From NCBI GenBank assembly GCA_900314765.1, contig OMWN01000010.1, forward strand, positions 2,854 to 66,853: DNA of 64,000 nucleotides. The letters run 5' to 3'. This document shows, piece by piece, positions 3,475 through 27,822 of the stretch. The stretch comes from an uncultured Selenomonadales bacterium. Lineage in GTDB: Bacteria; Bacillota; Negativicutes; Selenomonadales; Selenomonadaceae. The notes below the pieces were generated by a model. That model saw only the letters and a program-made list of their open reading frames with translations, had not been told where the DNA came from and searched no databases. Numbering within the stretch: position 1 is the stretch's first letter; every line of letters starts with the position of its first letter. The translations under genes and the position numbers were made by a program.

Positions 3475-5931
3475 TCATTTCAAAACGGGACTACCATTAT
3501 TGTCGTCGTATGTCGCTGTGCAGCGCGGGTAGTTTGTGCAGCCCCAGAAATATCCGTTGCGACCATTGATGCGGCGCAGATGACCTTCGCGGCAGTGCGG
3601 GCAGAGAATGTCACTCGCGCCTGTCGTTTTGTCGTTTGCGCGCGCGAGTTTCTCCATCGGCATGGCAGATGGTTGCTTTTTATATTGACCGCCGTGTCTG
3701 TACGTCGATTTTGATTCTGCCGCCTTGTAGCCAGACGATGATTGACCGCGGTATCGTGAATTATTATTCGTGTCTCTCGCGCGCATGGCCATGTAATCTT
3801 CGAATGAATTGATTTCGCGCGGATAGCTCTGAAAACTTTGGAAATCGGCGGCGTCCTGTGCACTCATCGTGAAGCTGTTGCCATTCGCGTTGGCTTTTCG
3901 CATCGCGAGCGCCATGTCGGGCTTGCCGTCGATGTCGTTCGTCGTGAGTCTGCAGCGTGGGAAATTTGTGCAGCCCCAGAAATCGCCTTTTTTGCCGTGA
4001 CGCTTCTCGAGCACGCCCTTGTGACAGCGCGGGCATTCGTAGCTGCTGGCCGCCGCCATTTTGACGTCCGTTGCTTTTTCGCACATCATCTTCGCGAATG
4101 TGATTTGTTCGCCTAAGAACGCGTCAATCGTGCCGTCTCCCTCCGCCATCGCGTGGAGCTTTTCTTCCCACACGGCTGTCTTGTCGGGGTATGTCATGTC
4201 GTCGGGCAGCACGTCGATGAGCATATCGGCAGCGGGCGTCGGCGAGAGATATTTCTTTTTGCCCGTCGTCGTCATGAATTTTCTTTTTATGAGGTCGTCG
4301 ATGATGGTCGCGCGCGTCGCTTCCGTGCCAATGCCATTTGTTTCGCGGAGCTTTTTCTTCAGTGTCTCGTCCTTGACGTATTTGTGTATCTCCTTCATGC
4401 CTTGCAGCAGTGTCGACGGCGTGAAGCGCGATGGCGGCTTTGTTTCCTTTTCGTCCATCGTCGTGTTTTCGAGCGTGACGCTGTCATTCTTTTTCATGAG
4501 CGGGAGCGTCGCGCTCGCGTCATCGTCGCTGTCGTTTTCGTCGTCATCGTTTTCATTTTTCGTTGCACGTTTCGCTGACGCGTACAGCGCTTTCCATCCC
4601 ATGTCGCGAACTGTGCGTCCGCTCGCCGTGAATTTTTCGTTCGCGAAATCGACGTCGATTTTCGTCTGGTCGTAAACGTGAACGGGATAAAATTGCGCGA
4701 GGTACGCCTGTGCGACGAGAAAATAAATGTTGCGCTCCATCGGCGTGAGCGACGCGAGATTCACGCGCACCGTCGTCGGTATGATGGCGTGATGCGCCGT
4801 GATTTTCTTGTCATTCCACGCGCGGCTCCTGATGGATTGGTCGGCGCCGTTTGCCCACTGGCTCAGCTGAGCGTCATCGATGCCTGTGAGATTTTGAAGA
4901 ATCGTCTTCGACGCGGGTATTTGATTTTTTGGCAGATATTCGCAGTCGGAGCGCGGGTAGCTTGTGAGCTTTTTCTCGTAGAGCTTCTGCGCGGTGTCGA
5001 GCACTTGTTGCGGCTCGTAGCCAAATCGTTTGCCCGCGAGCACTTGAAGCGTCGAGAGCGAAAATGGGAGGCGCTGTTGCTCCTGCTTTTTCTGTTTCGT
5101 GTACGATGATATGATGCCGCGCTCGCCGTTTGCAGCGGCGTCGGCCAGCGCCCTGAGTTTTTCCTCCGCGACGGCTTTGTCTATGAGCCTGCTCTCGGGG
5201 TCGATGCCACGCTCTGTTTCGCTCGGCTTCCACGTCGCGCGGAACGTGCCGTTTTCATGAGCAAAGTCTGCCTTTATGATGTAGTACGCGACAGGCTTGA
5301 AATTTTTTATTTCGCGCTCGCGGCGAACGACGAGTGCGAGCGTCGGCGTCTTGACTCTGCCGATGGGCAGCACGACTTTGTGGCCTGAGCGCCTCGCGGC
5401 GAGCGTGTACGCGCGTGAGAGATTCATGCCGATGAGCCAGTCCGCGCGCGAACGGGCGAGAGCTGACTCCTTCAGATGGACGAAGTCGTGGTTGTCGCGC
5501 AGGTCCGCATTCGCTTCCTTTATGCTCTTTTCGTCGAGTGCGTTCAAAAGAATGCGCAGCACAGGCTTCGTGTTGCCGACGTAGTCGAGCACTTCGTCTA
5601 TGAGCAGTTGTCCCTCGCGGTCAGGGTCGCCCGCGTTCACGATTTCGTCGGCCTTCGCTATGAGCCCCTTTATGATTTCAAATTGCTTTTTCGCGGCGGG
5701 GTCGACCATGAGCTGCCACTTCGCGGGCACGATGGGGAGGTCCTCGGCGCGCCATTTTTTGTATCGCTCGTCATAGTCCTGCGGCTCGAACTGACGCAGT
5801 ATGTGGCCAAATCCCCACGTCACGACGCCGCCCTTCGTCTCGATATATCCGTTGCCGCTTCGCGCTGGTCCGGGGAGACATTTCGCGATCTCTCGTCCCA
5901 TGCTCGGCTTCTCTGCAATATAAAGTCTCAA
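3475..5931 (-). CDS. topB: DNA topoisomerase III with two C-terminal C4 zinc-ribbon domains
   Basis: (M)RLYIAEKPSMGREIA is a Toprim start like E. coli TopB, followed by a type IA core. There are two CPxC...WGCTN(F/Y)PRC zinc ribbons. I prefer the TTG at 5931 because GGGAG lies 7 nt upstream; the ORF track starts at the GTG at 5940. Confidence 0.9.
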   Translation of the reverse strand: MRLYIAEKPSMGREIAKCLPGPARSGNGYIETKGGVVTWGFGHILRQFEPQDYDERYKKWRAEDLPIVPAKWQLMVDPAAKKQFEIIKGLIAKADEIVNAGDPDREGQLLIDEVLDYVGNTKPVLRILLNALDEKSIKEANADLRDNHDFVHLKESALARSRADWLIGMNLSRAYTLAARRSGHKVVLPIGRVKTPTLALVVRREREIKNFKPVAYYIIKADFAHENGTFRATWKPSETERGIDPESRLIDKAVAEEKLRALADAAANGERGIISSYTKQKKQEQQRLPFSLSTLQVLAGKRFGYEPQQVLDTAQKLYEKKLTSYPRSDCEYLPKNQIPASKTILQNLTGIDDAQLSQWANGADQSIRSRAWNDKKITAHHAIIPTTVRVNLASLTPMERNIYFLVAQAYLAQFYPVHVYDQTKIDVDFANEKFTASGRTVRDMGWKALYASAKRATKNENDDDENDSDDDASATLPLMKKNDSVTLENTTMDEKETKPPSRFTPSTLLQGMKEIHKYVKDETLKKKLRETNGIGTEATRATIIDDLIKRKFMTTTGKKKYLSPTPAADMLIDVLPDDMTYPDKTAVWEEKLHAMAEGDGTIDAFLGEQITFAKMMCEKATDVKMAAASSYECPRCHKGVLEKRHGKKGDFWGCTNFPRCRLTTNDIDGKPDMALAMRKANANGNSFTMSAQDAADFQSFQSYPREINSFEDYMAMRARDTNNNSRYRGQSSSGYKAAESKSTYRHGGQYKKQPSAMPMEKLARANDKTTGASDILCPHCREGHLRRINGRNGYFWGCTNYPRCTATYDDNNGSPVLK

Positions 5932-9908: not shown

Positions 9909-9965
9909 CGCGCAAATGAAATATAAAAGGCGAGACCAAAATTCATGAGTCTGTAATATTACAGT

Positions 9966-10125
9966 GGAAATAACTCGGCGATGCCAGTCCTCATCCACTG
10001 CGCAATTTCGATAGGCTCTAAGGCTGGCTTCCTCGCGGCAAAAGCGAAGACACGCCGCTTCGGAGCCAGCCAAAGAGCCTATATGAAATTGCTAAATTAC
10101 TTCAGACTGGCATCACCTCGGGAAT
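9966..10125 (+). ncRNA. Candidate structured RNA / ERIC-like structured repeat, copy 1 (unclassified)
   Basis: The block folds by eye into a rod with four helices. P1 is 9977-9989 with 10105-10117. P2 is 10003-10009 with 10085-10091. P3 is 10011-10019 with 10074-10082. P4 is GGCTGGCT/AGCCAGCC. It is about 89% identical to 22285-22445, with compensatory changes in P3. TGTAATAT (-10-like) ends 7 nt upstream. Confidence 0.5.
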
Positions 10126-10159
10126 ATCCAAAATTTTATAGGCATGTTTTTACGCAACT

Positions 10160-10299: not shown

Positions 10300-10360
10300 G
10301 TCCGCCCCTTGAGTGGCGGGGGACCGCCGTAGGCGGTGGTGGGGTGACGGCGAGAGAGTC
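10300..10360 (+). repeat. Solo GC-rich hairpin module related to the MITE termini at 27573-27822
   Basis: It contains CCGCC..GGCGG and ACCGCC-GTA-GGCGGT hairpins and ends in GGCGAGAGAGTC. The right MITE end has GGCGGAGAGGGTC. The module is embedded in an otherwise AT-rich leader. Confidence 0.45.
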
Positions 10361-14484: not shown

Positions 14485-15684
14485 ATGGGAAAAGCTATGA
14501 TTATCGGCTGTGGCGGCGTTGCATCAGTGGCCGCGCATAAATGCTGTCAGAACAGCGACGCATTTGACGAGATATGCATCGCGTCGCGTACGAAGTCGAA
14601 ATGCGACGCACTCAAGGCGAAGATTGACGGCGGCAAGACGAAGGTGACGACGGCGCAGGTTGACGCTGACAATGTGCCGGAGCTCATCGCGCTCATCGAG
14701 AAGGTGAAGCCAGACGTCGTGCTCAATCTCGCGCTTCCTTACGAGGACCTTCATATCATGGACGCATGCCTCGCGACGAAGACAAACTACGTCGATACGG
14801 CGAACTATGAGCCGCCAGACACGGCGCATTTCGAGTACAAATGGCAGTGGGCGTATCGCGACCGCTACAAGGACGCGGGCATCACGGCGCTCCTGGGCTC
14901 GGGTTTTGACCCGGGCGTCACGAGCGTTTTCTCTGCATACGCGCTCAAGCATGAGTTTGACGAGATAAATTACATCGACATTCTCGACTGCAATGCCGGC
15001 GATCATGGCTATCCATTTGCGACGAATTTCAACCCAGAGATAAATATTCGCGAAGTATCGGCGAAGGGCAGCTATTGGGAGGACGGCCATTGGGTCTACA
15101 CGGAGCCGATGGAGATAAAGCGCGTCTACGATTTCCCAGAGATTGGCCCGAAGGACATGTATCTCCTTCATCATGAGGAAATAGAGTCGCTTGCGCTCAA
15201 TATCCCCGGCATAAAACGCATCCGCTTCTTCATGACGTTCGGCCAGAGCTATCTCACGCATCTCAAGTGCCTCGAAAATGTCGGCATGACATCCATTGAG
15301 CCGATAGACTTCGAGGGACATAAAATCGTGCCACTGCAGTTTCTCAAGGCCGTGCTGCCGGACCCAGCGAGCCTTGGCCCGCGCACGAAGGGCAAGACGA
15401 ATATCGGCTGCATATTCCGCGGCGTGAAGGATGGCAAGGACAAGACGTATTACCTTTATAATGTCTGCGACCATCAGGAGTGCTACCGCGAGGTCGGCTC
15501 GCAGGCCGTATCGTACACGACGGGCGTGCCCGCGATGATTGGCACAGAGCTCATCATGAAGGGGATATGGAAAGGCCCCGGCGTATTCAATATAGAGGAG
15601 TTCGACCCAGACCCATTCATGGAAGAGCTCAACAAGTGGGGGCTCCCATGGAAAGAGAGCTACACGCCTGACCTCGTGGAGTGA
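14485..15684 (+). CDS. Saccharopine dehydrogenase-like enzyme: carboxy(nor)spermidine dehydrogenase family
   Basis: Rossmann start MIIGCGGVASV, about 400 aa, immediately upstream of nspC. I chose the ATG at 14485 because of a GAAGGGGGA RBS. Confidence 0.85.
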   Translation: MGKAMIIGCGGVASVAAHKCCQNSDAFDEICIASRTKSKCDALKAKIDGGKTKVTTAQVDADNVPELIALIEKVKPDVVLNLALPYEDLHIMDACLATKTNYVDTANYEPPDTAHFEYKWQWAYRDRYKDAGITALLGSGFDPGVTSVFSAYALKHEFDEINYIDILDCNAGDHGYPFATNFNPEINIREVSAKGSYWEDGHWVYTEPMEIKRVYDFPEIGPKDMYLLHHEEIESLALNIPGIKRIRFFMTFGQSYLTHLKCLENVGMTSIEPIDFEGHKIVPLQFLKAVLPDPASLGPRTKGKTNIGCIFRGVKDGKDKTYYLYNVCDHQECYREVGSQAVSYTTGVPAMIGTELIMKGIWKGPGVFNIEEFDPDPFMEELNKWGLPWKESYTPDLVE

Positions 15685-17741: not shown

Positions 17742-20700
17742 ATGATGAGCAAAAGAAGGAGCAATGCAGAGCTCACAAGCAAAGTGTTGGCAGGACTCGC
17801 GAGCATCGCGGCAGGCACGTTCATTATGGCGCCATTCGCTTCAACGGCTGAGGCAGCCACGGCCGACTACACCTATGTGGATATAGGTAGCGGCACGCAG
17901 ACTGCCAACATCGATGCAAGCACTGGCAACTCGACTGTCGTGGCGCGCGCCGCAGGCGATGCGACGATAAGCGGCGAAGTCAAGGCGGTGAACGCGGCTG
18001 GCACGAATACAGCTGGCGATGCTGTGTACATGATGGTGTCCAATCAAGACATCGATTGGAGCAGGGCAAGCGACAACGGCAGCGGCTTCACGAACATCAT
18101 CGAGAGCATCAACAATTCGACGGCGTCGGCTGAGTTCAGCAATACGGCGTTTAATGCTGGGAATGGCACAATAACGTTTGTGACGGGCGACATAGCGACG
18201 ACGGCGAGTGCTCTTGATGCGGGCGCAAGTGGCAACATATACATCGGACTCTCCGACACTGATGTGAAGGCGCTCGGCACGAACGCAAAAAATCTCAGCG
18301 CATCGGTGACGCTCGATGGTAATAGTAACTTCAGCACGATAACTTCGGCATCCACTTCTAACTCAAATGGATATATTCATTTGACATCACGCGGTACGTT
18401 GAAAGCGGATTCTGCGCAGATTTTTGATAGTTCAGTAGATACAACCACAACAGCAGGTGCAAACCAGAATCCTAGCGCTGTGCGTAGCGATGCCAATGCC
18501 GCCGTTGATTTTGAGGCGGGCACGCTCGAACTCACGGATGACTACTACAATATCGACTACCTCATGACGGCGACGGAACTCATCCACGAGGCCGACAATG
18601 GCACGACAGCTGTGCGATTCAAAAATGGCGCGACAGAGGTTGAAGTGTCAGCTATATCGGTTGATAATAGCTTAAATACTAATGAGGTTACGCTTGGCGT
18701 TTATCATGCATATAAAAGTGCGTATGATGAGCCAGCTTTTTCGAGCAATCAGGCATCAAGCGGACAGATGCGGATTCGTCAGTTTAACTTCACGGCGACT
18801 CCAATAACTGATAAGACGCTTTCATTTTCAGGTGATAACGTAAAGTTTGCGTCGCTTACAGATAATGCGCAGTTGGTGACAGTGAACGGCACGTCGAATG
18901 ATACCGCTTCTGATAAAGTTTCAATAGTTGCGACAAATTATTATGATATTACTAATAGCGTAGAGACAGACAGCACACTGTATTTCGGCCTTGATGGCAA
19001 CACGACAAATATACTTTCTGGCAGTGTTACAGTTGGCCATTCTTCTGACGAGGTAACATTGCAAAATGGCACGGTGGTTCATGATAATTCGTTGCTCGAT
19101 ATTGCTGCTGGCACGCTCAAAGTAACAAATGGAGTGAGCTTGCTTGGTCATGCGACGGCAGAGGTGTCAGAAGGCGCAACGCTCCAGACTGACACAATGA
19201 CGATAAGTTCTACATCGGAAGCGACTAATGGCGCTGAGCTTTCTGTTGATGGTACGCTCAAAGGACTGCACAACGATGGCGTAAAGCTCGATGCTACTGG
19301 TAAGACCATAACGGTAGGTCATTCTAATTCTACTAATTCGACTGACTCCGCAAAAGGCACGCTTATAGTTGATGAAGAGAGTACTTTGACAGGCGCGAGT
19401 ATTTTTGTAGATCCAGCTTGGAATGGAAGCGATACGATCAGTGATGCTTCCAATTTTGCATACGGATCAACTGACCCAGACGATACGAGTACGACTGTTG
19501 ACTATAAATTGACAATAGGACAAAATTCTGTTGGCAGTCTTGGCACGACAAGCACATCGACGGCCGCTAAGCTTTTCGATACGTCCACATATAAGTGGGG
19601 CGATGATGACATCAGTGCCGCGCTGTATCTTGCGAAGCCGACATATCTGAGCAGTGGCTCTGGCGGCATAAAGGTCGACGGCTCACTGACTACAGATAAT
19701 CTTGGTAAAACAGGCTACGAAGCGGCTACGGCAAATAACGCGACGTTTGGTGATAACTCGCTCCTTATGGTCGAAACGAGGGCGCTTAATGGAAATGCCG
19801 CTCTCAATGGAGACGCGAGCAGCACGGTAACAAGCACGCTTACTGTCGGCAATAATGCAAGTTTGCTTCTGTCAGCGGATGTGCTCGGAGATGTCGGCGG
19901 AACAAAGAGCTATGGAATTTATTCTAACTTTACTACTGCAAATAGTACCAATACGACAGATACCAACTGGCTCAATAATACCAACAATATTAGCTTTGAC
20001 AATAAGCTGCTGATGGCATCTAAGGCGCCGGGCGCGAACAACGGGTCAGTCGAGGTCACGCGTCTCTCGACGGCAAGCGTACTGCCTAGCGCTGTGCTTC
20101 CAAATGTCATTGACCATGTGGACCTCACGCGCGACACGACGCACCCGGGCATAAAGTATCTCTATGACGTGACGAGCACGGGACTCACGGACACTGAGTC
20201 CACGGACATGATAAACTTCGCGGCTCAAGCGGGCGAAATCGCTGGCGCAACGGCGACGACCGTGCTAGGAGCGACGGAACTCACGGACACGGCGCAGCAG
20301 CATTTCTCGTGGCTCTCAGGCAGCAAGAAACGCCACGGAGATGACTTCTGGTTCAAATATCTCTACAACAAGACGGACTTCGATGGCCTGTCGCTCGACA
20401 ATTTCCACGGGGCAGACTACGACACGAAGCTCAACGGCGCAATCCTCGGCTGTGATTTGCGCTCTGTCGGCGACTATCGTCAGGGCGTTGCCATCGCCTA
20501 CGGTGATGGCTCGACGGATGGTAGCCTCGCCAATGACGATTACAAACTCTGGACGCTCAGCTATTATGGTAGCCTCATGAGAGACAAAAACAATCTGCTC
20601 TTTGACGTCAGCTATGGCCGTGCTCGTCACGACGTTGACGCGTACTATGCGGGCAGACATTTCGAGATGGAGCCGAAGCACAATATATTCAGCATTGGCG

Positions 20701-21155
20701 TGACGGACGAGTACAAGATTCGCTCCGGCAAGACGAATATCATTCCGCATATTGGCCTGCGCTATATGAATATCAACGCGGACGACTACGACGCGACCAT
20801 CGGCGGCACGCGCGCATTTCACTACGACCCGGGCACGCAGAGCCTCGTTGCTTTGCCTGTCGGCGTTGGCTTCATGAATGTGACGAAGAGCGGCGCTTGG
20901 ATTTATCGCTTCTAGGCTGACCTCTCGTATGTGGGCATCCTCTCGGGACGCGACGCCGATATGGACGTCTCGCTCGCGGGCTACGGCGCGACGGACAATG
21001 TCGAGTACGACATCTCTGACTCGGGATATTTCCGCGGCATGGTCGGGTTCACGGCGAAGCGCGACAACTTCTCATACAACATCGGCTACACGTATCGCAA
21101 GGGCAGCGACACGCAGGGACATCGCGTGATGGCTGGCCTCACATGGAATTTCTGA
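17742..21155 (+). pseudogene. Outer-membrane autotransporter (type Va) interrupted by a single in-frame TAG at 20913-20915
   Basis: A signal peptide ends in FASTAEA. The passenger domain is long and T/S/N/G-rich. The C-terminal beta-barrel strands continue in the same frame across the TAG (..GAWIYRF*ADLSYVGIL..) and end in the OMP signature ..AGLTWNF with a terminal Phe. Confidence 0.8.
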
Positions 21156-21173
21156 CATATTGGCACGAAAAAT

Positions 21174-21212
21174 GGGATGCGGCAAAAATCTTTTGCATCG
21201 CATCCCGTTTTT
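21174..21212 (+). terminator. Intrinsic terminator after the autotransporter
   Basis: GGGATGCG (21174-21181) pairs with CGCATCCC (21199-21206). There is an inner GCAAAA/TTTTGC helix, followed by GTTTTT. Confidence 0.8.
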
Positions 21213-21275
21213 GTTATAATTTTGAACGTACGCAATTCGGTTGGCGGCAATAAATAAAATGGCAGGGTGATTTTG

Positions 21276-22240
21276 ATGGTTGAAAATGCCGAGCTTTACA
21301 AAAAATTTCTTGAGAAAAACAAAATCAACAACTTCGAGATACAGGAGGTCGGCGACGCTCATCACAGTGTGATTTTTCGCTCAATGGTGTCGCATCGCGG
21401 GCAGTACACACCGATTGGCATCATATTCGATGATACGATATACATCATCATCCGCGTGAATTTCGCACCGAAGGCGCTCGATGATGAGAATGCCTACGCC
21501 GTGAGCAATTTCATCATGCGGCTCAATCACGCAAATAAGCTGCTGAAATATTATCTCGCGCCGGACACGTCTGTCATTCTTGATATTTGCATACCGACGT
21601 TGCCAGGACATTTCTCGCCGGAGCTCGTGCAGACACTGCTCGGCGTGGCAGTGCGCGAGGTCGAGGCGCATCAGAGCGAATTCATGAAGCTCATCTGGCA
21701 GGACGCGACGGCTGAGAGCGAGAAGAAAGACGACGCGGCAAAGCCTGATGCGAAGATGGCGAAGACAGAGACGATGGATGAGTCTGTGGCAACAGCGGCG
21801 AATGATGAAGAGACTGAAGATGATGAAGCTGACGCAAGACCAGAAATGAAAGTGGGACGCGTGAGTTATGATAAAGATGATACGGCGTCAAAACAAACCG
21901 AGCAAATCGCGGAGACTGCACAAGTTCAAGAAGCCGTGAAAGCTGAGCAAGAGAAACAGGATGAGCAAGTCGAGCAGACTGGACAAGCTGAGCAAGTCAC
22001 ACAAGCGGAGGCGCTAGCGCCGAAGCGTAGAGTGACGCGCAGGGCGGCGCCGAAGTCGCCGACGATGAAGCGAAGAAAGAGCCAACAAAGACAACTTCAT
22101 CGAAAAAGCAACGGACGCTCGAGGAAATGCTGAAGCTCGCGACGCCCGAGCAACTCATTGAGATGACGAAAAAAGCGACACCCGAACAGTATAAAGCCAT
22201 CACGGCAGAAATCATCAGGCGCAGAAAAGCGAAGCAGTAA
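21276..22240 (+). pseudogene. YbjN-like domain protein with a long acidic low-complexity tail; apparent -1 frame break near 22030
   Basis: The N-terminal ~150 aa resemble the YbjN/chaperone-like fold family (weak call). Frame 0 ends at 22133 in an implausible R/K-rich tail. The -1 frame reads SDAQGGAEVADDEAKKEPTKTT...EEMLKLATPEQLIEMTKKATPEQYKAITAEIIRRRKAKQ* to 22240, which matches the upstream acidic composition. Confidence 0.5.
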
Positions 22241-22284
22241 AGAGAAAAGTTGTCGATAAAAACGCAAAGGTTTTGAAATGAGAT

Positions 22285-22445
22285 GGAAAATGACTCGGCG
22301 ATGCCAGTCCTCATCCACTGCGCAATTTCGACGGGCTCTAAGGCTAGCTTCCTCGCGGCAGAAGCGAGGACACGTCGCTTCGGAGCCAGCTCAAGAGCCC
22401 GTATGAAATTGCTAAGCTCCTTTGGACTGGCATCGCCTCGAGAAT
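22285..22445 (+). ncRNA. Candidate structured RNA / ERIC-like structured repeat, copy 2 (unclassified)
   Basis: It has the same rod fold as copy 1. P1 is 22297-22310 with 22424-22437 (14 bp, perfect). P2 is 22323-22329 with 22405-22411. P3 is ACGGGCTCT (22331-22339) with AGAGCCCGT (22394-22402). TTGTCG-18-TGAAAT lies at 22250-22279. Confidence 0.5.
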
Positions 22446-22460
22446 TTCACAAACGCATAC

Positions 22461-22515
22461 AAAAAGAGGACTGCTCCATTAGCGAAAATCGCTGACGGAA
22501 ACAGTCCTCTTTTTG
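22461..22515. terminator. Bidirectional intrinsic terminator (structured element copy 2 on +, pseudouridine synthase gene on -)
   Basis: AGAGGACTG (22465-22473) pairs with CAGTCCTCT (22502-22510). There is an A-run on the 5' side and a T-run on the 3' side, plus an inner AGCG/CGCT helix. Confidence 0.8.
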
Positions 22516-22518
22516 CAT

Positions 22519-22551
22519 TTAAAATTTTAATTTTAGCTCTGATGATTTTTC
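22519..22551 (-). repeat. Degenerate 33-nt tandem duplicate of the last 10 codons plus stop of the adjacent pseudouridine synthase gene
   Basis: The minus strand reads ..EKSPELKLKF* (gene end, stop at 22552-22554) followed directly by EKSSELKLKF* (22551-22519). All six differences between the two units are G/C to A/T. Confidence 0.7.
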
Positions 22552-23454
22552 TTAGAATTTCAACTTTAGCTCTGGCGACTTTTCTTTGATGTATTGTTTC
22601 ATGTCTTCAGGCAATGGCGCGGTTACCGTCAATTTTTCTTTCGTGACGGGGTGGATGAGGTCTATTCTGTAGGCGTGAAGTGCTTGGCGATTTATTTTGT
22701 CGCTTTTTTCGCCGTAGAGGTCATCGCCAATGAGCGGGTGACCGATGCTCGCGAGGTGCACGCGTATCTGATGCGTGCGACCTGTCACGGGCGCAATGTC
22801 GAGCAGTGTCTCGTCACCGAGCGTCGCCATCGTGCGATAGCGCGTGATGGCAGGTTTACCATCTGCTTCATTCACTTCCTGCTCGATGATGCTGCCGGGT
22901 TTTCTCGCGATGGGCGCGTCGATGATGCCCTCTGGCGGCGTGACGATGCCGCTCGCTATGCCGATGTATCGCCTGTGAAACAGTGCGCCGTCTTTGCCTG
23001 TGAGCTGTGACTGCATGTGCGGCGCCTTCGCGATGAGCACGAGCCCCGACGTATTGCGGTCGAGTCTGTGCATTGGATGAAATATCAGATTTTGGTGCGT
23101 CTTTTCATAGTAGTAAGTCACGCCGTTTGCGAGCGTGGGCTCCGGCTTTTTGTGAGAGACGGGATGGACGAGTAGAGGCGTCGGCTTATTGACAATCAGC
23201 AGATAGTCGTCCTCATAGCGAATGTCGAGCGTCATTTCGATGGGCTCAATCGGCGACGTCTCGTCAAGCGTGCATGTGAGCGTGTCGCCTGCGTGGAGCA
23301 TCGTAAGCGCTATTATCACAGGCTTGCCATTTACCGTGACGGTGCCGTTGTGTTTTATTCTGCGCCAAAGATGAACGGACACGCCGTTTTGCCTGAGAAA
23401 TTTTTTTGCGGGAATTTCGTTCGCGTCATCGGGCAATGTGAATGAGATTTTCAT
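22552..23454 (-). CDS. RluA-family (RluD-like) 23S rRNA pseudouridine synthase
   Basis: N-terminal S4-like domain, HRLDRNTSGL catalytic Asp motif and GRTHQIRVHL motif. Confidence 0.9.
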   Translation of the reverse strand: MKISFTLPDDANEIPAKKFLRQNGVSVHLWRRIKHNGTVTVNGKPVIIALTMLHAGDTLTCTLDETSPIEPIEMTLDIRYEDDYLLIVNKPTPLLVHPVSHKKPEPTLANGVTYYYEKTHQNLIFHPMHRLDRNTSGLVLIAKAPHMQSQLTGKDGALFHRRYIGIASGIVTPPEGIIDAPIARKPGSIIEQEVNEADGKPAITRYRTMATLGDETLLDIAPVTGRTHQIRVHLASIGHPLIGDDLYGEKSDKINRQALHAYRIDLIHPVTKEKLTVTAPLPEDMKQYIKEKSPELKLKF

Positions 23455-27572: not shown

Positions 27573-27822
27573 GACCCTCTCCGCCTCGCATTCGCTCGGC
27601 ACCTCCCCCATTGGAGAGGCTAGCGTTACAGTCGCTGAGATTATTTACATTAGCCGAAGCAGTGCATAAGGAAAAACGTAATTTCATAGTTCCATCGTAA
27701 ATCATGCAACTTGCTGTCTGTAAAGAGAAGGACTGTCGTTCACTTTTTATCTATATCGTAAAGCGTTGCTTTCGCTATGCCTCCCACCATGGGGGAGGTG
27801 CCCCGCAGGGGCGGAGAGGGTC
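27573..27822. mobile_element. MITE-like non-autonomous element with composite GC-rich terminal inverted repeats and an AT-rich core
   Basis: The left end is GACCCTCTCCGCC..GGCACCTCCCCCA (27573-27610). The right end is TGGGGGAGGTGCC..GGCGGAGAGGGTC (27790-27822), which is its reverse complement. There is no credible ORF inside. Confidence 0.6.

Follow-up and report, generated by a model that had tools for sequence, protein, structure and literature searches.

The 64,000-nt stretch of DNA analysed here (the window), from an uncultured Selenomonadales bacterium, contains two copies of a structured intergenic element, copy 1 at 9973-10125 and copy 2 at 22293-22445. We interpret the element as a lineage-specific, non-coding, dispersed palindromic repeat of the kind represented by miniature inverted-repeat transposable elements (MITEs), ERIC sequences and REPINs, residing between the genes of an uncultured rumen member of the Selenomonadaceae near Schwartzia. 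We place the probability of this interpretation at about 0.72. The element occurs in several copies in unrelated gene contexts, its occupancy varies between strains, its copies tend to lie directly past a stop codon in the direction of the upstream gene, and its hairpin is kept. Like bacterial MITEs in general, it is short (below about 400 bp), carries no transposase gene and does not code for protein, and its dispersed intergenic copies include filled and empty sites. A first-pass annotation of the window had favoured a stand-alone or trans-acting RNA, or a structured 3'-UTR module, over a riboswitch. The stand-alone or trans-acting RNA is not supported, in view of at least six loci, variable occupancy, and a copy between two rhamnose synthesis genes that lacks signals of its own. 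The repeat family is new, while its kind of bacterial repeat is already known. Less usual are its insertion at stop codons or within them and the alternation at one site of two unrelated repeats with a common end motif.

Two copies of one hairpin in the window

A repeat search of the window returned one two-copy family, at 9968-10133 and 22288-22453, with 87% identity and a spacing of 12,320 nt. The 153-nt cores of the two copies align under MAFFT without gaps and with 17 substitutions (88.9% identity), in agreement with the earlier count of about 16 in an indel-free alignment. Both cores fold well below their shuffles. As RNA, copy 2 reaches -83.0 kcal/mol, compared with -51.0 +/- 4.2 for shuffled sequences (z -7.7), and copy 1 reaches -77.9 kcal/mol (z -9.2); no shuffle equalled either value. 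The consensus structure has 53 pairs, and its helices are long and nearly perfect, with 17 bp in P1 and about 30 bp stacked in P2-P4. The parts of the hairpin are as follows.

22293..22445, plus strand: core hairpin of copy 2, 153 nt, seen in the fold, the consensus structure and a match of 190 bits to our covariance model R1
9973..10125, plus strand: core hairpin of copy 1, 153 nt, R1 match of 189 bits, 88.9% identical to copy 2
22294-22310 with 22424-22442: helix P1 of copy 2, from the consensus fold
22311-22322: 5' strand of the internal loop of copy 2, TCATCCACTGCG
22322-22339 with 22394-22412: P2/P3 of copy 2
22342-22352 with 22382-22391: P4 of copy 2
22355-22359 with 22374-22378: apical stem of copy 2

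The differences between the two copies respect the helices, as the first-pass annotation had described. P3 changes from ATAGGCTCT/AGAGCCTAT in copy 1 to ACGGGCTCT/AGAGCCCGT in copy 2, a switch of two neighbouring pairs from U-A/A-U to C-G/G-C (alignment columns 44/113 and 45/112). P1 contains a perfect 14 bp in copy 2 (GGCGATGCCAGTCC/GGACTGGCATCGCC), where copy 1 has a C.A mismatch at 11/147. The internal loop strand TCATCCACTGCG is the same in both copies, and the strand opposite it differs at five positions (TAAATTACTTCA versus TAAGCTCCTTTG).

At the tip of copy 2 (22355-22384), two substitutions (22361, A to G; 22375, C to T) extend an alternative helix, GAAGCGA/TCGCTTC, from 5 to 7 bp. This helix and the consensus GCGGC/GCCGC stem exclude each other, so that two folds may compete at the tip.

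Further copies in unrelated gene contexts

Proteins encoded beside the element were found in cattle-rumen metagenome assemblies and in one metagenome-assembled genome. The RluA-family protein encoded next to copy 2 has one relative at 97% identity and then none above 70%, its best named relatives being Schwartzia proteins at about 63%. This one protein, together with the presence of an autotransporter gene, suggests that the organism belongs to an uncultured rumen lineage of the Selenomonadaceae. Rumen metagenome contigs, apparently of the same species or close relatives, are given L numbers here. A search with the peptide of the open reading frame (ORF) that runs through the element yielded two clusters, which led to L007 and to L008/L009. 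Model R1 was built from five sequences and then run on the fetched contigs. The copies found outside the window are these.

L007 (46-kb contig), 4993-5145: between secA and prfB
L007, 2064-2224: second copy in this contig, between a chemoreceptor (MCP) gene and secA, R1 match of 161 bits
L008/L009: after a gene of no assigned identity
L037, 15594-15754 (likewise in L040): between rmlA and rmlC, found with R1

With the two window copies, this makes six distinct loci with pairwise identities of 83-95%. The gene contexts are unrelated, ranging over polyamine synthesis, secretion, rhamnose synthesis and a hypothetical gene. Five of the six copies start 0-62 nt past a stop codon, in the sense orientation of the gene that ends there. 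Because L007, L037 and L042 come from one sample and have other repeats of the window species in common, the six loci probably represent paralogous copies in a single species or in bacteria very closely related to it.

Contigs often end at the element. Five Logan contigs stop 26-28 nt into copy 2, L006, L040, L057 and L058 stop inside a copy, and L055 begins within 1-2 bases of the end of a core. Multi-copy repeats do this in short-read assemblies, and the repeat thus explains the fragmentation of assemblies at these points. It also marks intergenic sites that differ between strains.

Outside this lineage the searches came back empty. The exact 18-mer CCTCATCCACTGCGCAAT, which spans the internal loop, had 8 matches in the genomes of 185,579 species (one each) and 14 in Joint Genome Institute (JGI) metagenomes, all due to chance and with the remainder of the element missing; it had none in IMG/VR viral contigs. 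The element had no blastn match among plasmids and phages, and a chimeric query of its other five reading frames had none in a protein search, which was probably swamped by random word matches. R1 detected no element in about 44 kb of orthologous rluA loci with 62-70% protein identity (L033-L035, L050), where synteny differs, and strain variants of window positions 24-44 kb held no additional copies. The family appears to be confined to one lineage, judged from a small sample of relatives and from an exact 18-mer in the large collections.

Filled, empty and exchanged sites

Between rmlA and rmlC, two contigs (L037 and L040) carry the element and three (L036, L038 and L039) do not. The insert of about 176 bp consists of GACAAAGTG, the core and TGTCACAAACTCAT, and it begins past the first base of the rmlA stop codon, such that the empty TTA TAA reads TTA TGA in the filled allele. 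The empty allele has TAA (L036) and the filled allele TGA (L037) at the same position, 15588-15590. The insertion therefore lies inside the stop codon and leaves protein length unchanged; the rmlA product has 292 aa in both alleles. The stop codon of secA also overlaps this left-end motif, as T followed by GACAAAGG. Thus, in two of the six copies (L037 15588-15590; L007 4972-4974) the stop codon TGA is made of a flanking T and the GA of the left end GACAAAG.

At the site of copy 1, a different repeat takes the place of the hairpin in some strains. One pair of flanks surrounds the hairpin in the window, in L041 and in L059; in L051, L056 and L042 it surrounds an unrelated element of about 250 bp with inverted ends of about 60 nt. 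When the window is aligned with L051, the left flank is common through TGTAATATT (9951-9959), and the right side resumes at about ATCCAAAAT/TTCATAAAC, with the flank common again from about TTTTACGCAAC. The first DNA to depart from the alternative allele is a short junction piece.

9960..9972, plus strand: left junction piece of copy 1, ACAGTGGAAATA plus one base

A single contig, k141_514137, has copy 2 in place (L062) and copy 1 replaced by the other element (L051).

The right tail of the element holds a hexamer resembling a -35 box, TTCACA or GTCACA (TTCACA at window 22446-22452; L037 15752-15781). At L037 a consensus scan joins this hexamer to a flanking TATAGT with a spacing of 18 nt, directed towards rmlC, as a consensus match only. 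Outward-facing hybrid promoters of this sort are known from other small mobile elements.

Ends of the element

The core is 153 bp long, and the element measures about 170-195 bp with its end pieces. The 17-bp P1 helix forms a sub-terminal inverted repeat. The outermost sequences, GACAAAG..ATGAG on the left and TCACAAAC.CAT on the right, are partly complementary and vary among copies. On the left side of L007B (GACAAAGGATAAATGAGGTT), L037 (GACAAAGTG) and copy 1 (GACCAAAATTCATGAG) one again finds the motifs G[A/C]CAAAG(G), ATGAG and GGAAAATG, and the DNA inserted in L037 begins with GACAAAG. On the right, T[C/T]ACAAAC.CAT recurs in only some copies. For copy 2, the probable end pieces are the following.

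22264..22292, plus strand: probable left extension (GCAAAGG..AAATGAG..GGAAAATG), recognised by the recurring motifs, its exact boundary inferred
22446..22458, plus strand: probable right tail, TTCACAAACGCAT, which matches the right end of the L037 insertion, TGTCACAAACTCAT

The left extension includes TGAAAT (22274-22279), which the first-pass annotation had taken for a -10 box. The right tail also resembles TTCATAAACTCAT, a sequence that adjoins a second repeat family (see below).

Pairing is kept without a signal specific to the plus strand

Substitution statistics were drawn from seven distinct sequences of the element. Standard pairs occupy 94.3% of the pair cells. Six pairs have changed on both sides, compared with 3.1 +/- 1.0 in column shuffles (3 of 500 shuffles reach six), and the covariation score is 0.119 compared with 0.073 after shuffling, a value as high in 0 of 500 shuffles; shifted registers give almost nothing. 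P3 passes through three states, ATAGGC/GCCTAT, ACAGGC/GCCTGT and ACGGGC/GCCCGT, with L008 as a C.A intermediate. The pairing of the hairpin is being kept by compensatory changes. L007A, with five mismatches left uncompensated, appears to be a copy in decay.

The pattern does not single out an RNA read from the plus strand. On that strand there are 14 cells with G.U pairs and 10 with A.C mismatches. An A.C mismatch on the plus strand is a G.U pair on the minus strand, so these nearly equal counts carry no signal specific to the plus strand. In each of the seven sequences the reverse complement gives the more stable fold, by a mean of 6.7 kcal/mol. Variation is no greater in unpaired columns (11/47) than in paired ones (31/106). 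The asymmetry of the internal loop, which the first-pass annotation had stressed, holds between the window copies (0 versus 5 differences) but loses significance across the seven sequences, with 1/12 variable columns on the TCATCCACTGCG side and 5/12 opposite (Fisher p = 0.155).

Correction by template switching within quasi-palindromes could yield compensatory changes without selection. Bertels and Rainey (PMC3116915) reported such changes to be frequent in REPINs too, a mobile DNA that forms hairpins, and they are thus not by themselves a sign of functional RNA. The comparison has a wider lesson: covariation between two copies of a hairpin does not alone prove a functional RNA, as the same pattern arises in palindromic mobile repeats.

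The ORF through the element is non-coding. ORFs of 70-73 codons run through both window copies, but the ATG is lost in L007A and a stop codon interrupts the frame at codon 42 in L008. Substitutions between the window copies fall 5/6/6 on the three codon positions, and the peptide, MPVLIH..., has only 2 similar clusters among 5.8 billion proteins.

22283..22495, plus strand: ORF through copy 2, 70 aa, spurious, broken in other copies and without codon-position bias

The first-pass annotation was right that the peptide is not under selection. Its broader claim, that selection acts on structure rather than on a peptide, stands insofar as the pairing is kept and the ORF is non-coding; what is not supported is a constraint specific to plus-strand RNA, in view of the G.U and A.C counts and the better fold of the minus strand.

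The surroundings of copy 2

Copy 2 sits between the stop codon of a 37-codon ORF, which is called as a gene in several assemblies, and a terminator common to that ORF and a convergent rluA-family gene. The convergent arrangement had been noted before, and the next gene indeed encodes an RluA-family synthase on the minus strand (22552..23454).

22461..22515, no strand assigned: bidirectional terminator-like hairpin outside the repeat, a 13-bp stem (AAAAAGAGGACTG/CAGTCCTCTTTTT) with an A-run before it and a T-run after it

A simple terminator scan misses this stem because its loop exceeds 8 nt. The hairpin serves both convergent genes and is not conserved beside other copies of the element. Of the two flanking signals proposed for copy 2 in the first-pass annotation, the terminator-like stem is visible in the sequence, and the promoter is weak: a consensus scan did not call TTGTCG-18-TGAAAT, and its candidate -10 box, TGAAAT, lacks the A at position 2.

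The DNA upstream of copy 2 (window 17742-20915 and 20931-22240) contains an autotransporter-like gene of 1057 aa and hypothetical genes of 74, 285 and 37 aa. The three hypotheticals are lineage-specific and without a Pfam match, and the 285-aa product has a long acidic tail of low complexity. In relatives at about 62% identity, a fructose-bisphosphate aldolase gene occupies the place beyond the 3' end of rluA, which marks the autotransporter block as a lineage-specific insertion.

Downstream of copy 1, a G-rich motif, GTCCGCCCCTTGAG-TGGCGGGGGACCGCCGTAGGCGGTGGTGGGGTGAC, lies at window 10301-10348 (plus strand), about 80 nt upstream of a speD-like gene. The same motif occurs in L007 at about 5193-5293 (plus strand), upstream of prfB, with a hairpin of about 55 nt inserted after CCGCCCCTTGAG. 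It holds a short palindrome around GTAG (ACCGCC-GTAG-GCGGT), as repetitive extragenic palindromic (REP) sequences do, and has no Rfam match. Its sequence would suit either a REP-like repeat or a structured leader.

A model for the spread and side effects of the repeat

We propose that the element spreads, or spread recently, as DNA by means of an enzyme encoded elsewhere. Its hairpin may be kept because mobilisation needs paired ends or a single-stranded DNA hairpin, and template-switch correction of quasi-palindromes possibly also helps to maintain it. Copies between a stop codon and the next signal would be co-transcribed, placing a long double-stranded RNA hairpin in a 3' untranslated region (UTR) or between cistrons. 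As a side effect, the RNA hairpin could halt 3' exonucleases or recruit RNase III or RNase E, altering the stability of the neighbouring message. MITEs and ERIC sequences often lie at gene 3' ends, are co-transcribed and affect the stability or processing of mRNA (PMC3184786). Copy 2 would then be a fixed insertion between the stop codon of the 37-codon ORF and a pre-existing bidirectional terminator, rather than an RNA gene with signals of its own. If the repeat does alter the stability of neighbouring messages, which here concern rhamnose synthesis, polyamine synthesis and secA-prfB, it would make gene expression differ from strain to strain.

Several observations weigh against a mobile repeat. 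No transposase or other partner gene was found beside any copy in about 100 kb of DNA of the lineage. The termini are not cleanly defined from six copies, and the left-hand motifs recur in some copies but not in all. Short repeats stand on both sides of the junctions, T[T/C]AT (or AT) in L037, CCAAAATT at copy 1 and AAACGCA at copy 2, but they fit no single rule as a target-site duplication. Copy 2 is present in every contig that spans its site and is thus fixed in all strains sampled; a search of these contigs for an empty allele found none. The filled and empty rml alleles also differ nearby, and allele exchange or deletion, instead of a recent insertion, could explain the polymorphism. Finally, covariation exceeds that of shuffles, and some selection on pairing, possibly at the RNA level, may be at work.

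Other explanations of the element

The element might instead be a domesticated cis-acting RNA module of 3' UTRs and intercistronic regions, setting the half-life or processing of the upstream gene's mRNA, for example as an RNase III site or an exonuclease block, with mobility only in its history. RNase III cuts long near-perfect helices, and those of the element would suit it. The sense orientation of five of the six copies shortly past a stop codon, the fixation of copy 2 and the compensatory changes all fit such a module. However, orientation is informative for only three copies, those between co-directional genes, the gene contexts are unrelated, strains do without a copy at two loci, and the fold is more stable on the minus strand. 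We consider this explanation unlikely. A cis-acting role is possible for fixed copies such as copy 2, and it does not conflict with the main interpretation as a mobile repeat.

A family of stand-alone or trans-acting small RNA genes, in which each copy has its own promoter and terminator and TCATCCACTGCG acts as a seed or protein-binding site, would account for the nearly invariant loop strand (1/12 variable) and for covariation above shuffles. Terminator-like hairpins lie downstream of copy 1 as well as copy 2, and AT-rich hexamers resembling -10 boxes lie 8-15 nt upstream of several copies. The rml copy, which lies within an operon, is difficult to reconcile with this scheme. It starts inside the rmlA stop codon, which leaves no space for a promoter of its own between stop codon and hairpin, and the rmlC ribosome-binding site follows about 60 nt on. 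A terminator scan around this copy in L037 found no terminator-like site, and the only promoter-like match on the plus strand lies at the 3' end of the copy, facing rmlC. Likewise, L007B is followed by a different repeat motif with no obvious terminator, L007A lies in a divergent promoter region, the promoter of copy 2 fails the consensus scan, and flanks are not conserved between copies. Occupancy that varies between strains, a loop asymmetry short of significance, no folding advantage of the plus strand, and a loop 18-mer with no homologue in the genomes of 185,579 species or in JGI metagenomes all count against it as well. Such a family is quite improbable.

A small protein gene (MPVLIHCAIS...), suggested by the 70-73-codon ORF, or a 6S-like RNA mimicking an open promoter, suggested by a loop of about 12 x 12 nt that superficially recalls the rod shape and large internal loop of 6S RNA, can be dismissed almost entirely: the frame loses its start in L007A, is stopped in L008 and shows no third-position bias, no Rfam family, 6S included, matches at E <= 10, and presence in multiple, strain-variable copies does not fit 6S RNA.

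Two further candidates were rejected. With no downstream gene to regulate and no Rfam match, copy 2 does not qualify as a riboswitch, which the first-pass annotation had also held to be less likely. No Rfam 15 family, whether 6S RNA, Y RNA or riboswitch, matched at gathering score anywhere in the 64-kb window, and the region 22200-22560 searched at E <= 10 gave chance matches only, all below 19 bits. An integron attC site was set aside as well: GTTRRRY occurs in no core, and the copies stand among housekeeping genes about 12 kb apart.

A second repeat family with a common end motif

A second dispersed repeat family, of about 220-250 bp with inverted ends of about 40-60 nt, has the form GACCCTCTCCGCC, then TCGCATTCGCTCG or CCTGCGGG, then GCACCTCCCCCA-NNNN-GGGAGGC. 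Its members are listed here.

Window, 27573-27822
L007, 6537-6776 and 9695-9936
L008, 734-970
L051, 1977-2195
L042, 1-62

The window member stands between convergent genes, members in other strains take up the copy-1 site, and the L008 member is separated by 26 nt from a copy of the hairpin. Next to one end there is often CTTCATAAACTCA, a sequence similar to the right tail of the hairpin repeat. That the right-hand motif adjoins this family too is a hint that both have one target or are moved by one activity.

The common end motif T[C/T]A[C/T]AAAC.CAT and the use of the same chromosomal site in different strains make it tempting to speculate that the hairpin repeat and the element of about 250 bp are two cargoes of one mobilising enzyme. 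This enzyme would place hairpin-shaped DNA at stop codons or within them, the stop being rebuilt by GA, the first bases of the element. This would be a new mobilisation system of the Negativicutes, whose RNA hairpins may have been recruited to tune the stability of operon mRNAs. We hold this scheme to be rather unlikely as it stands. The end motif and the insertion site common to both families nevertheless offer a handle for finding the mobilising enzyme.

Comparison with known repeat systems

Families of stem-loop sequences have been catalogued in bacteria by genome-wide clustering and are repeated intergenic stem-loop sequences like the element described here (PMC2267715). The element differs in coming from an uncultured organism and in having no match in the reference collections searched.

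REPINs are REP doublets mobilised by RAYT proteins and are thought to move as a single-stranded DNA hairpin (PMC3116915). They share with the element a hairpin-forming repeat of about 100-150 nt, conserved arms, compensatory changes and copy sets that vary between strains (PMC3116915). Unlike them, the element is not built of two short REP palindromes, GTAG/CTAC occurs in no core, CGTC or GACG is only sporadic and internal, and copy number looks lower than typical. No gene for a RAYT, a Y1 HUH transposase, was seen in the fetched loci.

The Correia elements of Neisseria, RUP and BOX of Streptococcus and other MITEs have defined terminal inverted repeats and target duplications, some with a parent insertion sequence; none of these features is established for our element. 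Shared traits are a length of 100-200 bp, predicted folds of high stability, sites that are occupied in some close relatives and vacant in others, insertion beside genes and possible effects on transcripts (PMC3184786).

The ERIC sequences, or IRUs, of the Enterobacteriaceae have no sequence similarity to the element, which belongs to a different phylum (in the Negativicutes), and the flanking TA and clear target duplications of the ERIC type have not been demonstrated for it. The likeness lies in architecture and placement. ERIC sequences are imperfect palindromes of about 127 bp in the MITE class and, like the element, are small, non-coding and palindromic throughout (PMC3184786; PMC2759123). 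Both are intergenic, often at the 3' ends of genes, co-transcribed as a hairpin (in our case by inference), variable between strains and crossed by chance ORFs (PMC3184786).

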